A stretch of 7,824 bases of DNA. It comes from a virus (lineage: Duplodnaviria > Heunggongvirae > Uroviricota > Caudoviricetes). The stretch lies in the IMG/VR virus record IMGVR_UViG_2671180680_000001. One strand, 5' to 3'. This document shows, in pieces, positions 1,833 to 6,685 of this stretch. The notes under the pieces were generated by a model. It saw only the letters and a program-made list of their open reading frames with translations, made no database searches and was not told where the DNA came from. The first letter of the stretch is position 1; each line of letters opens with the position of its first letter. The translations under genes were made by a program, and so were the position numbers.

Positions 1833-2615
1833 TTATGCTGCCCTTTTCATTGCGAATGGAACGCGAACAAACACGATCTCTTTATAGCAGCGGCAGTTTG
1901 GCAGCTCGCCCGCGTGGCCGGTCATGCCGTCCAAAGTTGGAGGTGAATCCCAGCGGACGAATTTACCTTTCATGTGATCGTGGGAATCTCGGACATCGCC
2001 ATCATCGGCTGTACGCCAAATATAACCATCCGAGCCAATAGCTATCGCTCGGGCCATATCCAGCGCGCCCGTTGCTCTTCCCAGTTCCGTTCGGGCAATC
2101 AGATCGGCCCTAGACTTAGCAACATCGCCGGTAGATGCAATCTCTTTAGCAAACTGCTCCGCCCGACCACCGGTGACAACAGCCTCTATCGCTTTGTTCT
2201 GGATGTCGTACACCCTGTCTGCGGCCTCGAGAGGCAGAGATTTGATGTACTTGACCTGTTCGGCGATGATGGATTGCATCACCTGGCCCACAGGAGCGCT
2301 TTCCACAAGATTGCGGAGCTCGCGACTGATGTTCTTGCTGTGTTGCCGCCAAACTTTCTCGTTCTGCCGGGTTAGGTCCGCAGTAAAGTTTTCCGCGACC
2401 TTTGTCGCCCAGGGGGTGATGATTTCACTGTAACGCTCCAGCGCCGCAATAATTTCCGTGATACTGTCATTTGAACCATCGTAGCGACCATTTACGATGT
2501 CTCCGACCGCCCTCGCTATCCTGCGTAGGCTGGTTCGATACCGGATTTCCGCCTGACGGCTCCTGCGGTTCGTCATCAGGTTCGCCGATGCCGGGCGGCG
2601 CTTCATCTTCGGCAT
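1833..2615 (-). CDS. Phage minor head / head-morphogenesis protein (Mu gpF / SPP1 gp7-like), 260 aa
   Basis: 260-codon ORF immediately downstream of the portal gene, the usual position for Mu F-like minor head proteins. ATG at 2615..2613 is preceded by GAGGA about 9 nt upstream. Basic N-terminus; ends with a Cys-containing tail (LPNCRCYKE). The 5' end overlaps the portal 3' end by 149 nt in another frame. Family assignment is from recalled similarity and synteny, not a search. Confidence 0.55.
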   Translation of the reverse strand: MPKMKRRPASANLMTNRRSRQAEIRYRTSLRRIARAVGDIVNGRYDGSNDSITEIIAALERYSEIITPWATKVAENFTADLTRQNEKVWRQHSKNISRELRNLVESAPVGQVMQSIIAEQVKYIKSLPLEAADRVYDIQNKAIEAVVTGGRAEQFAKEIASTGDVAKSRADLIARTELGRATGALDMARAIAIGSDGYIWRTADDGDVRDSHDHMKGKFVRWDSPPTLDGMTGHAGELPNCRCYKEIVFVRVPFAMKRAA

Positions 2616-3860
2616 TCTCGATGTCCTCGTCGGTAATGGATGCCCCGATGCCGGTTACGTCAGAATTTTCTCGCAAATCAGTCATAGCGGCTTTCAGTGT
2701 CATCAGACCATCACCCAGCGCCGTACTGATTGCGTTGGTGGTGTTTAACGCCACCGTTGAGCGATCGACATCAGACATTTGCCAGAGCGGGTTAAACTCA
2801 AACGTGAAATCGTCCGGCAGCGGCTTGCCAAGTTCCGAACGATGCATGATGTCCAGTATCCGCCGCACCGGAAGACGTAAACGCCTCTCCTGCAACGAAC
2901 TGATGCGATCGTAATAGTTGGCAAGGTCTGCATCACCGGTAGAAAATCCTTTCGGGGACTGTCCGAACAACCGCACCAGTGGGATACCAACAGCGCCACT
3001 AATCTGTTCTACAAACTGCGAAAGGATGTCATCCAGACCACTGAAGCTGTACTGATGGGTTTCAAACTTATCCCGCGAGTCCATGAGCGTCATGCCTTCA
3101 TTACTCTGGAACTGTCGAATCAGGTCGATATTCTTCAGCAACGCTTCATACGCAGGACCACCAAGTGCGATAAGCTCGCGTAGCTTCTCCACGCTGTAGG
3201 TACGCAAATGCGCCTTGTAGACCAGCTGCGCCGCGCCGACAGTAGCGCTGTCGAACGCGGTAAGACGATCCCAGATACGCTCTACAACCGACATTCCCCA
3301 TTCGTTCTCGGTCATCTTCTGCTGAAATGGCAACGTGACGCCATCAAAGCGAATCAGGCGACTGTGATGAATGCGCCAGGCAGGAATTCCCGTTGCTGTG
3401 GTCACCACATCGTAAAACTCAGGTTTACCCAGGTCCGGCCCCATATCTTTAATGCGGCGGGTCAGTGCCGGGTCGACCGTGCCTACCCCTCAATCATGAT
3501 GAAACCCACCGCGCCGCCGTAGAGGCGCGACCATTTCAGCACGTCATTCAGCGCATCCCAGATTTGCAACTCATCCAGTTGTGATTCGAGAATGCCACGA
3601 TCTTTTGCATCAATTTCCGAAGTGATGCGAATGCCTTTGCGGGTCATATCATCCGGGATAGCATCGACTGCTTCGCCGATGATCTAGGATGAACGATAGG
3701 ACCATTCCACCAGCATGCGGTTACGACTGGTGAAATTAGCCCGGTAGGTGGATGCTGAGTGCTGGTTAGGTGTCTGCATCCCTACGCGGGCAATAAAATT
3801 CTCATAACCATCAGCTGTGGCCTGCACAGTTCGCCGCAGGGCTTGTTTGTTTCGTGCCAT
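2467..3860 (-). pseudogene. Portal protein gene, disrupted (in-frame amber plus 1-nt deletion in a homopolymer)
   Basis: ATG at 3860..3858 overlaps the terminase large-subunit stop (ATGA overlap). Frame A reads MARNKQALRR...VEWSYRSS, then TAG (plus 3684-3686), then IIGEAVDAIPDDMTRKG...GFIMIEG, then TAG (plus 3483-3485). The downstream 325-aa ORF (3444..2467, portal-like) is in a different frame that opens at 3489. Adding one G to the GGGG run (plus-strand CCCC 3486-3489) joins the two frames into a ~464-aa protein (IEG-VGTVDPALTRRIKDMGPDLGKPEF...). Length 1394 nt is not a multiple of 3. Confidence 0.75.
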
Positions 3861-5263
3861 CAGGCCTGTCTCCCCAGCTGTTCCCAGATATCCAGCGATG
3901 TATCGATTGGCGCGAAGGCCATAATGAATGCATCAGCAACGTTTGGTGACGGTATCTCGCGTTTTGCGAGGTCTTTTTTACTTTCGACCATCACACGTCC
4001 GTTACGGTCGAAATCACGATGAGGTGTTGTCAGTTCCAGTTTCAGCTTTTCAAGCAACGGACAACGAGAATCTATGCTGATCAGCTCATCCACAGGATAC
4101 TGTTCTCCGTTGTTAATGGCGTTAAACGTATTTCTGAAACGGTCAGCCACCAGCCACCATGCCTGAGCCTTAAGATTTGCGAAAAAGTCTTTGTTGGGGA
4201 TGCCGTTGTACTCGTCATCTGGCTCATGCACACCAGCACCGGCGTTAAACCTCTGGTAATTCACACGTCGCGCGTATGCGTTCTCGCTCTTCCGGTCAGC
4301 GTTAATTTCAGAGAATTTAGCACCGGCAGACGCACCAACACCGATAGAGTCGTAAACAATATCTGCTTCACGCTCCAGCGCCGCCTGATAAGTACGCTGG
4401 CAGCTCTTCAGTAATTCATCTTCTTTGGCCTTCCATTCGTCGGCCCAGAAAACAACGGATCCGTGACGGTAAACGTTAGCGCACTTATCTGTACCACTGT
4501 CAGCCACGTCAAAGCCAATACGCTTTCTTCCACTGGGTTCGAAATTTAACGTTTTGTGCGCATCCACTGCGGCTTCTATCCAAGACAGTTTGATGATTGC
4601 CGCATCATCATCAGACTCCGGAACGCCCTCATACACATGTTTAAAACCATCCGGATCACGGCGTCGCGCCGCGTCGATAACCTTAAGCATGGTGTCAGAC
4701 AGAAACGGATTTTCGTCATAGTTAATTTTGCGGATGAGAGTGCCTTCGGGCGGATCAACAACGAAGTTGCGCCAGACGAAATCAGTAACAAGTCCGGGGT
4801 TGAATATGAACCAGCATTCCGAACCCTCTTTACGGATCGTTGGCTCCAGAATTTTCCACTGGTATTCCGTCAGTGCGTGGGCTTCTTCCAGCCACAACAC
4901 ATCGATCCCCTCCAGTGACTTAATTTCTTCGATGTTGCGCCATAATCCATAAAAAACAAATTCCGAGCCAGTAACCCGGTTAATGATTTTGTTGTTCAGA
5001 ATACGGAAACGGTGCCGCAGACCAAACCTGTCTATCTGAATTTTGAGCAGGGTATACACCGACTCTTCGATTTTATTCTGGATCTGACGGGCACAACAAA
5101 AACGCAGGGTGTATTTATTCGACAGAAATATGGCAATGCCAGCGGCATCCCATGATTTTGACGATGACCGACCACCATAAAGCACTTTGTTACGTGCCCG
5201 CATAGTCCAGAAACTACGTAAAGCCGGATTCAGCGTCGGTTTGGATGTCAGAGTAGAAGTCAT
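3860..5263 (-). CDS. Terminase large subunit (PBSX/Terminase_3-like ATPase-nuclease)
   Basis: Long uninterrupted ORF with a Walker-A-like P-loop YGGRSSSKSWD near the N-terminus, preceded by an NPALRSFW segment typical of this family, and a long C-terminal nuclease-sized region. Sits directly after the terminase small-subunit gene. Start is ambiguous: in-frame ATGs at 5302, 5290, 5287, 5281, 5263 and 5203; 5263 is chosen (GGAG about 12 nt upstream, 50-nt overlap with TerS). The 5371 start in the ORF track is rejected as a read-through extension. Confidence 0.85.
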   Translation of the reverse strand: MTSTLTSKPTLNPALRSFWTMRARNKVLYGGRSSSKSWDAAGIAIFLSNKYTLRFCCARQIQNKIEESVYTLLKIQIDRFGLRHRFRILNNKIINRVTGSEFVFYGLWRNIEEIKSLEGIDVLWLEEAHALTEYQWKILEPTIRKEGSECWFIFNPGLVTDFVWRNFVVDPPEGTLIRKINYDENPFLSDTMLKVIDAARRRDPDGFKHVYEGVPESDDDAAIIKLSWIEAAVDAHKTLNFEPSGRKRIGFDVADSGTDKCANVYRHGSVVFWADEWKAKEDELLKSCQRTYQAALEREADIVYDSIGVGASAGAKFSEINADRKSENAYARRVNYQRFNAGAGVHEPDDEYNGIPNKDFFANLKAQAWWLVADRFRNTFNAINNGEQYPVDELISIDSRCPLLEKLKLELTTPHRDFDRNGRVMVESKKDLAKREIPSPNVADAFIMAFAPIDTSLDIWEQLGRQA

Positions 5264-5978
5264 TGAGGTCACGCTCTCCATTGCCATCATCAATACCTGC
5301 ATCACGGCGAAGACGATCAGCCTCCAGAGACACCTTATCAGTGGCGGCCTTGCGGTAGGCTGTATCAGCAAATATTTTTCCTACCGTCGCAAGCGTGCCA
5401 ACGATGGACTCAATACGAACTGTATTGCGCATCATTGCTTTCTCGGCGGCGCTGATATTTTCAATCAGCATCTTCCTTTCCTGGTCCCCATTAGCATCTT
5501 CCAGCGACACCAACCACCGACCAATATTCTCTGCAGCGACAAGGTTGTTAGCACGAAGGCGAAATAATTCGTCCTCGAGCGTCAACGCTTTAGCGTCCTC
5601 TATCACCTCATCTTTGAGCAGAAGGCGACGGGCATAACCACCGTGTTTTAATGCCTGCTGGTTACCGGGTTGGAATGGGTTAGTCGGGGGATCGGTACGC
5701 ATTCCGCGTATCGGTTTCGTATCCGGTGTAGATTCTGTTTTTAGTTGCGTACTTTTTTGTGTAAGGCCAGTAATGGCAGGCTTTCTGCTGGTACGCACTT
5801 TCCTTTTTTGCGTACCATTTTTGCAAACCTGCGTACCGCCACTGCGTGCCCAACCAAGCTTTTTGGCCCTCTTCCTGATAGCCCCTTCTGTAACGCCGTA
5901 TTTCTCGCCTATATCACGGAGGCTAAGGACTCCGGCCCGGTATGCCGATTCGATGGCCTCCCAGTCCGGTTTTGCCAT
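5214..5978 (-). CDS. Terminase small subunit (N-terminal HTH DNA-binding domain)
   Basis: 254-codon ORF immediately upstream of TerL. ATG 5978..5976 is preceded by AGGAAG about 8 nt upstream. N-terminus (LSLRDIGEKYGVTEGAIRKRAKKLGW) looks like a helix-turn-helix, followed by a basic low-complexity linker (GTQ/K/R repeats) and a helical C-terminal region, the usual TerS architecture. Confidence 0.65.
   Translation of the reverse strand: MAKPDWEAIESAYRAGVLSLRDIGEKYGVTEGAIRKRAKKLGWARSGGTQVCKNGTQKRKVRTSRKPAITGLTQKSTQLKTESTPDTKPIRGMRTDPPTNPFQPGNQQALKHGGYARRLLLKDEVIEDAKALTLEDELFRLRANNLVAAENIGRWLVSLEDANGDQERKMLIENISAAEKAMMRNTVRIESIVGTLATVGKIFADTAYRKAATDKVSLEADRLRRDAGIDDGNGERDLNDFYSDIQTDAESGFT
5745..5850. 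repeat. Cluster of GGTACGCA(A/G)-type 8-9-mers with flanking A/T tracts inside the TerS ORF; candidate pac / terminase recognition elements
   Basis: Plus-strand copies: TTGCGTACT 5745-5753, TTGCGTACC 5808-5816, CTGCGTACC 5829-5837, degenerate CTGCGTGCC 5842-5850, and an inverted copy GGTACGCAC 5790-5798. Spacings of 63 and 21 bp between same-orientation copies; T6 runs at 5753-5758 and 5804-5809. The repeats lie in the TerS linker region and encode GTQ/KVRT repeats. Confidence 0.4.
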
Positions 5979-6062
5979 GATTATGCTTCCTGTGATTTAC
6001 TGTTATCGCTGCCTGTCACAATAGGTTGCTTTAATTCTTCCTCATCACTCACTCCTGCGACG

Positions 6063-6088
6063 CTCCGTGGCAGGGCCCCCCACAGGAG
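6063..6088. other. Imperfect inverted repeat / hairpin with C-rich loop in the TerS-DedA divergent intergenic region
   Basis: CTCCGTGG (6063-6070), 9-nt loop cagggcccc, then CCAC-A-GGAG (6080-6088): 8 bp of pairing with one bulged A. No U-tract on either strand, so not a canonical intrinsic terminator. Confidence 0.3.
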
Positions 6089-6092
6089 TACC

Positions 6093-6123
6093 TTGTAAAT
6101 GTAAGGTGTTTAAGCCTAAATTA
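6093..6123 (+). promoter_or_regulatory. Weak candidate sigma70-like promoter for the DedA-like gene
   Basis: TTGTAA (6093-6098), 19-bp spacer, TAAATT (6118-6123); each hexamer matches consensus at 4 of 6 positions, about 50 nt upstream of the ATG at 6176. Poor match; listed only because the plus-strand gene needs its own promoter. Confidence 0.15.
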
Positions 6124-6175
6124 AGTCGTATCACGGTTAAATAGCAAAGAAAAATTCACAGAAGGAAAGACATTG

Positions 6176-6685
6176 ATGGAGTGGATAAATGCTTTGATGA
6201 ACTATTTTGTACTTCATCCATATCGCCTATGGGGGCTTCTTTTTATAATAGCGTTCACAAAATCCACTTTACTCATTTCGGCGATATTGCCACCAGCATC
6301 AATTATGATGGCCACTGTAATTACAGTCAGCAAGACGACTCTTTCACCATGGGAAGCTGGAATCACGGTCATGAGTGGCGCATGGTGCGGTACTATCGTT
6401 AATTACCATCTTGGTATAATAATTGGGCATATCCCTCAACTTGCATGTATAATATCAAGCCGTTCCAATACAATAGAACGGGTTCGCCTTCAGTTGCAAA
6501 ATAACTCTGTGTCAATACTTTTCACTTCGCGCTTTATCGCCGTGCTGCGTTATATTGCTCCTTTGGTGGCAGGAATGTTGCAACTTCATCCAGTGAAAGT
6601 GTATACAGTGAGTCTGATTTCAGCTGCTAGCTGGTCAGCACTTTATGTTGGTAGTTTTAGCTTCGTGTTGCCTTTTTTTAGCTAA
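6176..6685 (+). CDS. DedA/YqaA-family (VTT-domain-like) small inner-membrane protein; moron-like cargo gene
   Basis: 169-codon ORF from ATG 6176 (GAAGGA SD 6161-6166; the in-frame TTG at 6173 is less likely). Very hydrophobic, with about four predicted TM segments. Recalled resemblance to E. coli YqaA / DedA family: ILPPASIMMATV, SPWEAGITVMSGAWCGTIVNYHLG, and FTSRFIAVLRYIAPLVAGM resembling the family's R-x-(I/V)-P-x-x-G signature. Clearly more AT-rich than flanking phage genes and transcribed opposite to the late operon. Confidence 0.65.
   Translation: MEWINALMNYFVLHPYRLWGLLFIIAFTKSTLLISAILPPASIMMATVITVSKTTLSPWEAGITVMSGAWCGTIVNYHLGIIIGHIPQLACIISSRSNTIERVRLQLQNNSVSILFTSRFIAVLRYIAPLVAGMLQLHPVKVYTVSLISAASWSALYVGSFSFVLPFFS

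Follow-up and report, generated by a model that had tools for sequence, protein, structure and literature searches.

We describe here an array of an 8-mer, GGTACGCA, within a 7,824-nt stretch of tailed-phage DNA (IMG/VR record IMGVR_UViG_2671180680_000001; this whole stretch is hereafter referred to as the window). The array lies inside the gene for the small terminase subunit (terS; its product is TerS) and is likely to be the cognate TerS-binding element of a headful phage, that is, its packaging (pac) recognition element. TerS would read the repeats to start packaging, because the sequence of the repeat changes in step with the DNA-reading helix of TerS across phages. An earlier note on this DNA had proposed short repeats within terS as a candidate pac signal, and it is this covariation, a comparison of sequences, that supports the core of that idea.

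The array contains four exact copies of GGTACGCA (two per strand), two copies with one mismatch and two decayed relics (Table 1). The exact 8-mer was found five times in the whole window, versus 0.18 expected, and none of 200 dinucleotide shuffles of the window reached this number (0/200). The fifth copy, at 3199-3206 (plus strand), is isolated within the portal gene, unrelated to the array and probably a chance occurrence. Sites 4 and 5 together make up a perfect inverted repeat of 9 bp, its arms 11 nt apart. The earlier note had listed four copies in the same orientation and one inverted copy, an outline that holds, but only two of the four same-orientation copies are exact, and the range given for the repeats ended just short of the second exact inverted copy (site 7). 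The 21- and 63-bp spacings on which that note relied were recovered by our repeat search, together with the direct and inverted families, but the phasing at multiples of two helical turns read into them is not conserved. The orthologous arrays in relatives have five to nine intact copies, and their direct copies are spaced by 12 bp (87 cases), 13 bp (60), 15 bp (56) or 8 bp (24); what is conserved is a layout in which direct copies succeed one another at 12-15 bp and a single inverted copy comes after them. Spacings of 21 and 63 bp are confined to the E. coli clade, where they arose through mutation of the middle copies. The two T6 runs of the note are present (5753-5758 and 5804-5809), as is a T5 run (5818-5822), but these do not correspond to conserved bend-inducing tracts: the logo of the class-A site reads G(0.86)-G-T-A-C-G-C-A(0.99), with a 3' flank that is weakly A-rich, due to Lys and Gln codons. 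The intergenic region 5979-6175, suggested as an alternative packaging site, contains no copy of GGTACGCA, even with one mismatch allowed, and has short repeats at chance level only.

The N-terminal 45 residues of TerS, which include a helix-turn-helix (HTH), are common to TerS proteins that are otherwise unrelated (170-220-aa families, phrog_1206), and in terS genes with unrelated C-terminal parts an 8-mer likewise occurs three or four times, immediately past the DNA for the HTH. The identity of this 8-mer depends on the first residues of helix 3, and at least seven helix/8-mer classes can be distinguished: xEGAIRK with GGTACGCA, xDTAIRK with GGTTCGCA, xHGAINK with GGTATCCA, xHTAINK with GGTTTCCA, xHATILK with GGTAACCA, xHVSINK (class HV(T/N/S)I(S/N/A)) with GGTTAAC, and xHQAISK with GGTTGCCA. 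The first four classes (EGAIR, DTAIR, HGAIN and HTAIN) constitute a 2x2 factorial: G or T at helix position 2 is paired with A or T, respectively, at base 4 of the 8-mer, and R or N at helix position 5 with CG or TC at bases 5-6. Positions 1, 2 and 5 of a recognition helix are those expected to face the major groove. The covariation also holds inside the TerS family to which the window belongs: a TerS 69% identical to that of the window (L008), with the helix SHTAINK, has GGTTTCCA / TGGAAAC in place of GGTACGCA. In the phrog_1206 family, a fourth, inverted core located in the conserved segment SER-x-LIEA changes with the class, x being V, I, E or Q in five of the six classes. The same code holds in Aeromonas phage pAEv1818, the Pseudomonas phages PseuP_222, FBPa19 and 8P, Acidovorax phage AP1 and E. 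coli phage HK639.

The assignment of motifs to helices was reproduced when the commonest 7-mer of nt 111-330 was sought without bias in 112 distinct genes, and was unchanged in an independent set of 85 genes from environmental viral contigs, in which the N-terminus is conserved differently (DWERIELDY). At least four copies of the top 7-mer were present in 75 of the 112 test segments, versus none of 101 control segments from the same genes. A count of three is not rare, as it was reached by 16 of the 101 control segments, and the argument therefore rests on counts of at least four, the identity of the motif and covariation. The reverse test started from arrays of three copies in IMG/VR DNA alone, with the helix then looked for in frame upstream. 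An [ST]EGxxR helix was found for 134 of 150 distinct GGTACGCA arrays, and an [ST]H[GS]AxN helix for 95 of 113 GGTATCCA arrays. None of the arrays of either motif carried the helix of the other class, and several of those scored as having no helix were near-misses of the search pattern.

Two further observations concern terS genes at the margin of this comparison. In L008, the copies of GGTTTCCA and TGGAAAC overlap (nt 130-170). In the distant terS homologs L009 and L012, the palindrome TGCGAATTCGCA occurs twice at nt 140-190, and the HTH helix is different (LNYATAKRYIK).

In a codon alignment of 65 distinct homologs, the 8-mer is written into terS in three coding contexts: as G-T-Q (GGT ACG CAR), as x-V-R in another frame (xxG GTA CGC Axx) and, inverted, as V/A/M-R-T (GyG CGT ACC). 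Codons for G-T-Q were counted in 41 distinct homologous genes. The linker tripeptide G-T-Q was encoded by GGT-ACG-CA(A/G) in 105 of 105 cases, in genes in which GGT otherwise accounts for 32% of Gly codons and ACG for 31% of Thr codons. Likewise, V-R at the three sites of the phrog_1206 TerS family was GTA-CGC in all 135 cases (135/135), GTA being elsewhere the rarest Val codon (8%). Per-codon synonymous diversity over close homologs was not discriminating, as this set is dominated by two shallow clades, and was replaced by distant pairs and codon-usage counts. The frequency of identical codons was higher for motif codons in all 10 pairs (82/95 pooled, versus 27-79% per pair for other codons), with Fisher p-values between 0.0011 and 0.069 for nine of the 10; the window-L006 pair is not significant alone (p = 0.26). 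In the comparison of HK639 with a Xenorhabdus prophage, 11 of 13 motif codons were identical, versus 43 of 118 others (p=0.0011), and in that of an enterobacterial gene with a Pseudomonas phage, the values were 7/7 and 38/76 (p=0.011). This pattern shows selection on the DNA, not on the protein, at the array. Given that the sites are part of a coding sequence, the G-T-Q, V-R and V-R-T residues of the linker would then be mere consequences of the DNA signal. The earlier note had read the repeats as encoding a linker and had suggested that DNA site and linker were co-constrained; both points stand (the peptides are GTQ, STQ, VRT and MRT), and no homologs were found that kept GTQ while varying its nucleotides, a finding that the note had named as grounds for refutation.

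The length of the array is variable. The count of a 12-nt unit, ACGCAAAAAAGT (T-Q-K-S), differs among near-identical terS genes of Klebsiella type (+4 in L112, +1 in L110 and -1 in L119), and slippage or recombination thus lengthens and shortens the array.

The gene carrying the array matches the small terminase subunit profile phrog_370 (E=7.5e-95, residues 1-252), in agreement with its initial assignment as terS, and its N-terminal 67 aa also match phrog_1206 (E=1.4e-22). No NCBIfam model was found for the protein, which is labeled 'hypothetical protein' in RefSeq, and a sequence search of the PDB returned nothing relevant. In an AlphaFold2 (AF2) model, helices 6-15, 20-27 and 31-41 form a confident three-helix HTH (predicted local distance difference test, pLDDT, 80-88), residues 48-102 are predicted to be disordered (pLDDT ~30) and long helices span residues 114-198. 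The array coincides with the DNA coding for the predicted disordered linker, just after the HTH. It thus has the location of a pac site, inside terS and directly upstream of terL, the gene for the large subunit (TerL). TerL had been taken as an indication of headful packaging, which is borne out by its matches to Pfam Terminase_3 (4.5e-38) and, over residues 3-423, to the Sf6 gene 2 protein (PDB 4IDH, E=1.7e-76); its annotation is also that of the RefSeq record of the identical region. Pac rather than cos is supported, because TerL is homologous to the headful terminase of Sf6. The motif is, furthermore, nearly unique: Klebsiella phage Mulock (43.7 kb) has its four exact 8-mers all in terS, as well as seven of its 11 GTACGCA cores, and the window has a single stray copy, at 3199.

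These observations can be combined into a model. According to the structural model and family assignment, TerS consists of an N-terminal three-helix HTH, a flexible linker of about 55 residues and a helical oligomerisation part. The DNA coding for the linker holds several direct copies of GGTACGCA 12-15 bp apart and an inverted copy or two. In the recognition helix, positions 1, 2 and 5 (E31, G32 and R35) would read bases 4-6 of the 8-mer, as covariation indicates, and neighboring sites would be occupied cooperatively by several HTHs of one TerS oligomer, marking the concatemeric phage DNA. By analogy with P22/Sf6-type packaging, the Sf6-like TerL would then be recruited, a first cut would be made somewhere nearby, and headful packaging would proceed towards terL and the head genes, leftwards in window coordinates. 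From TerS binding to the place and direction of the first cut, these steps, cooperative occupation and TerL recruitment included, are what we infer.

Arrays were also found outside terS. L357 (7400-7520, minus strand) and L435 (5008-5076) carry an array homologous to terS linker DNA of Klebsiella type, with intact 8-mers in the order AGTACGCA, GGTACGCA three times, inverted TGCGTACC, GGTACGCA and AGTACGCA. This array is out of frame, in apparently non-coding DNA, and no TerS HTH is present within 2.5 kb of it. L357 and L435 are related integrase-bearing elements, both with a baseplate-hub-like gene and a Panacea toxin-antitoxin pair; L357 additionally has an Abi_2 gene and a tyrosine integrase, and after its array comes GGTTTCC...TGGAAAG...CTGGAAAC, a motif that belongs to another TerS class. 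The array in these elements may be a captured pac signal, in a satellite-like mimicry, or a relic, to judge from its sequence and surroundings. Non-coding GGTACGCA arrays are also present in four viral contigs of about 70% G+C (L353, L364, L409 and L439), each with two inverted copies, about 55 nt, and three or four direct copies 11 nt apart, and in L373 (63% G+C), with 10 direct and two inverted copies. No TerS HTH of the window type was found near these five arrays. The reverse scan also returned the pentapeptide-repeat genes L354 and L379. Since these two genes and the GC-rich arrays differ in architecture and lack a neighboring TerS HTH, they were considered unrelated or unexplained and not used further.

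A broader proposal, which we put forward tentatively and which still falls somewhat short of being probable, is that there is a large TerS superfamily of Proteobacterial phages with a predictable code. Helix positions 1, 2 and 5 would specify bases 4-6 of GGT-N-NN-CA, the 8-mer would be written three to nine times into terS, and the arrays could be captured as non-coding cassettes by other integrative elements, as in L357 and L435. If this is true, packaging specificity could be read off the sequence and re-programmed with two or three substitutions, and parts of the TerS sequence would be dictated by its own DNA target. The L357 and L435 cassettes would then be pac mimicry by satellites, possibly directed at more than one helper class.

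Several points weigh against the interpretation of the array as a pac element read by TerS. The TerS proteins of P22, Sf6 and SF6/SPP1 show weak, non-specific DNA binding in vitro (PMC9611059, PMC4737164); sequence-specific reading is not, therefore, the default expectation. A Foldseek search of the PDB with the AF2 model of TerS returned coiled-coil noise only (best E = 0.38). In our literature search, virion DNA ends were found for no relative, and this search, which was incomplete, returned no description of the array, of sites for this TerS HTH family or of a helix/8-mer code, including for Mulock and HK639. Pseudomonas phage Orisa03 (L247, helix SHVSIHK) and Pantoea phage PdC23 (L248, helix TEGAIRKQ) have an HTH of the same type, but an 8-mer array is not obvious downstream; either the rule does not apply to them or their sites are elsewhere. 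A few genes of the 85-gene sample also lacked a clear array. Part of the correlation between helix and motif could result from linkage in one inherited module, the helix-coding DNA lying about 40-250 bp from the sites; the factorial pattern, the copies in several frames and the recurrence in distant hosts argue against linkage alone, without eliminating it. Finally, the copy in the window is partly damaged. The window lacks 73 bp between 3478 and 3479 with respect to E. coli FDAARGOS_944, in which the portal gene (DUF1073 / Phage_portal_3) is an intact coding sequence of 1,467 nt (~488 aa). This deletion splits the portal gene of the window (~2473-3821, minus strand) into two frames and, judging from these, the prophage can probably not produce particles on its own. 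Two or three ancestral copies of the array have also mutated: the change GTA to GCA at 5843-5850 is specific to the sub-lineage of the window, and GTACGC to GTTTGC at 5822-5829 is common to the E. coli clade. The portal frameshift and the decayed sites together suggest a prophage on its way to becoming cryptic. Since the array is partly decayed and the portal broken, the pac site in this copy may be weakened or idle.

Of the alternatives, the one retaining most support, although unlikely, is that the 8-mers are protein-binding sites with another role, in autoregulation by TerS or as a transcription roadblock in the late operon, or for a different regulator traveling with the module. The binding of TerS along both its promoter and its gene has been suggested to serve as a transcription/packaging switch in SPP1-like phages (PMC4737164), and the present data locate no cut site. 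Nevertheless, TerS has the established function of recognizing the phage DNA that is to be packaged (PMC9611059), and the sites bound by its HTH are thus elements of pac or cosB type by definition; in Mulock, the array is unique in the whole phage genome, as expected of a packaging signal, and a separate regulator would require a three-way linkage to explain the covariation of helix and motif.

It is very unlikely that 5790-5797 and 5809-5816 pair as a stem-loop of the late mRNA, or as a cruciform, controlling translation, stability or termination. The perfect inverted repeat itself fits such a structure, as does the predicted folding of 5680-5860 (minus strand; z = -2.15, with three of 200 shuffles as stable), and other motif classes also retain a direct/inverted pair in which each of the two arms has changed. 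However, a hairpin would account for two copies only, and not for the three to seven further direct copies, the inverted element of phrog_1206 is only a 6-nt core about 28 nt away, a promoter/terminator scan gave no signal at the array, and the correlation with the recognition helix of TerS is left unexplained by an RNA model. Similarly improbable is a cosB-like anchor for a terminase of cos type, with fixed ends. Covariation of recognition helix and site is best documented in the cos phages lambda, 21 and N15 (PMC4669245), and three repeated sites, one of them inverted, resemble R3/R2/R1, but TerL is of the Sf6 gp2 and Terminase_3/PBSX type rather than the lambda type; no cosN-like element was seen, although none was looked for. 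The remaining alternative, in which the repeats are merely the footprint of a slipping G/S-T-Q-K peptide in a low-complexity linker, with no DNA-level function, fits the variation by 12-nt units and the predicted disorder of the region, but is largely refuted by the codon data and scarcely credible, given that synonymous positions are frozen, that the 8-mer occurs in two sense frames and inverted, with different peptides encoded, that all copies switch together with the HTH helix, including a copy inside a structured helix, that apparently non-coding DNA has kept a homologous array out of frame, and that Tandem Repeats Finder detected no tandem repeat in the window.

Table 1. Features of the array, of terS and of the surrounding late operon (positions of the window).
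Feature	Position	Strand	Sequence, product or coding context	Basis or remark
Whole GGTACGCA array	5694..5850	both	candidate pac recognition element	inside linker-coding part of terS, directly upstream of terL
Site 1	5843..5850	minus	GGCACGCA, decayed, one mismatch; W-A-R	GGTACGCA (W-V-R) in almost all relatives
Site 2	5830..5837	minus	exact GGTACGCA; G-T-Q	
Site 3	5822..5829	minus	GGTTTGCA, decayed; Q-V-C	codon alignment; counterpart is GGTACGCA (Q-V-R, other frame) in Klebsiella, Raoultella, Rouxiella and Aeromonas relatives
Site 4	5809..5816	minus	exact GGTACGCA; G-T-Q	followed by A6
Site 5	5790..5797	plus	exact inverted copy (TGCGTACC on coding strand); V-R-T	
Relic of direct copy	5758..5765	minus	CTTACACA	codon alignment; CGTACGCA in Klebsiella clade
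Site 6	5746..5753	minus	AGTACGCA, one mismatch; S-T-Q	GGTACGCA (G-T-Q) in 97-98% identical E. coli relatives
Site 7	5694..5701	plus	exact inverted copy; M-R-T	within conserved TKPIRGxRTDPP segment
Recognition helix, aa 31-41	5856-5888	minus	EGAIRKRAKKL	E31, G32 and R35 (positions 1, 2, 5) co-vary with 8-mer
Three-helix HTH, aa 6-41	5856..5963	minus		AF2 secondary structure; weak Pfam HTH matches, aa 17-41
terS	5214..5978	minus	254 aa; N-terminal HTH, disordered linker, helical C-terminal part of oligomerisation type	ORF, phrog_370, AF2
terL	3860..5263	minus	Terminase_3 / PBSX family, Sf6 gp2-like	Pfam, PDB 4IDH, RefSeq; overlaps end of terS
Portal, Mu-F-like protein, DUF2213 protein and cement-like protein genes		minus		beyond terL in late operon
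DedA/VTT gene	6173-6685	plus		opposite to late operon, between lysis genes and terS
Lysozyme and Rz	7738-6774	minus		late operon

The window forms part of an E. coli / Shigella flexneri prophage, and identical terS genes are present in CP182556 and CP178302. Its late operon, on the minus strand, contains a gene in the opposite orientation that encodes a membrane protein with a DedA/VTT domain, annotated 'DedA family protein' in RefSeq; this gene looks like a moron inserted in the operon. The terS and terL reading frames overlap, in different frames, at 5185-5302 (minus strand), and the annotated start of terL varies: that of Mulock corresponds to 5185, that of the E. coli RefSeq record to 5263, and that of GZ7, like the start of the RCIP record, to about 5302. 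The ends of the RCIP0034 and RCIP0098 records were considered as mapped termini and rejected: the break inside terS is exactly the start codon of terL, and is thus a re-orientation of the record and not a pac end.

How a TerS of pac type picks out viral DNA is described as unclear and controversial in recent reviews, and the TerS proteins used as models bind DNA in vitro weakly, with no preference for sequence (PMC9611059, PMC4737164). The TerS family studied here provides a clean sequence-specific case, in which natural classes and a factorial pattern make recognition directly testable. If confirmed, the code would make pac sites and packaging compatibility predictable from the genome for many Enterobacterial, Aeromonas and Pseudomonas prophages, including widespread ones of Klebsiella and E. 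coli, would help to predict the start points of lateral and generalized transduction and to design packageable plasmids, and would explain why some TerS residues are fixed by selection at the DNA level rather than at the protein level.

Among known systems, the cosB sites of lambda, 21 and N15 (R-sequences bound by the winged HTH of gpNu1) likewise consist of several short repeated TerS sites, one of them inverted, and N15 has an accessory inverted copy (rR2) inside its own terS. What sets packaging specificity in these phages are residues of the recognition helix, which vary from phage to phage along with the sequence of the site (PMC4669245). The joint change of helix and site is thus shared, but the resemblance is functional only: the lambda-type enzyme is a cos terminase making fixed nicks at cosN, whereas the TerL of the window is Sf6/PBSX-like rather than lambda-like; the lambda sites lie upstream of terS beside cosN, with an IHF bend, whereas the 8-mers of the window form a 12-15-bp array in coding sequence; and the HTH family is distinct, with no Pfam Nu1 match.

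In P1, the headful signal is also a short element present in multiple copies within the small-terminase gene, pacA, and has been described as seven hexanucleotide repeats (PMC11260489). The P1 hexamers contain GATC, are subject to control by Dam methylation and lie in two clusters on either side of the cut, whereas GGTACGCA contains no GATC and is laid out as a direct array with an inverted copy. P22 and Sf6 share with the window a pac inside terS (gene 3 in P22) and headful packaging, which is established for Sf6 (PMC9611059), and the TerL of the window is a close homolog of Sf6 gp2. The P22 pac is, however, a single asymmetric 22-bp sequence (PMC9611059), also studied in the 'pac-wobble' experiment (PMC11260489), and differs in this respect from a multi-copy 8-mer array in both orientations; the TerS proteins of P22 and Sf6 are, moreover, unrelated in sequence to that of the window (no PDB sequence match). 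The pac of SPP1 and SF6 (pacL-pacC-pacR, box A/B/C) has direct repeats at the start of terS and an N-terminal HTH on an oligomer (PMC4737164). Its boxes are poorly conserved, its DNA-binding domain has little sequence specificity, and recognition has been attributed to intrinsically bent DNA (PMC4737164), whereas the 8-mer of the window type is exactly conserved and tracks the sequence of the helix, which argues for a base-specific reading by TerS. The kind of element is therefore already known, as a short-repeat pac inside terS (P1, SPP1 and P22), and for the window itself the array is the expected kind of element in a partly decayed prophage; with respect to the prevailing picture, an exactly conserved 8-mer array in linker-coding DNA, with several natural specificity classes, is a distinct variant.

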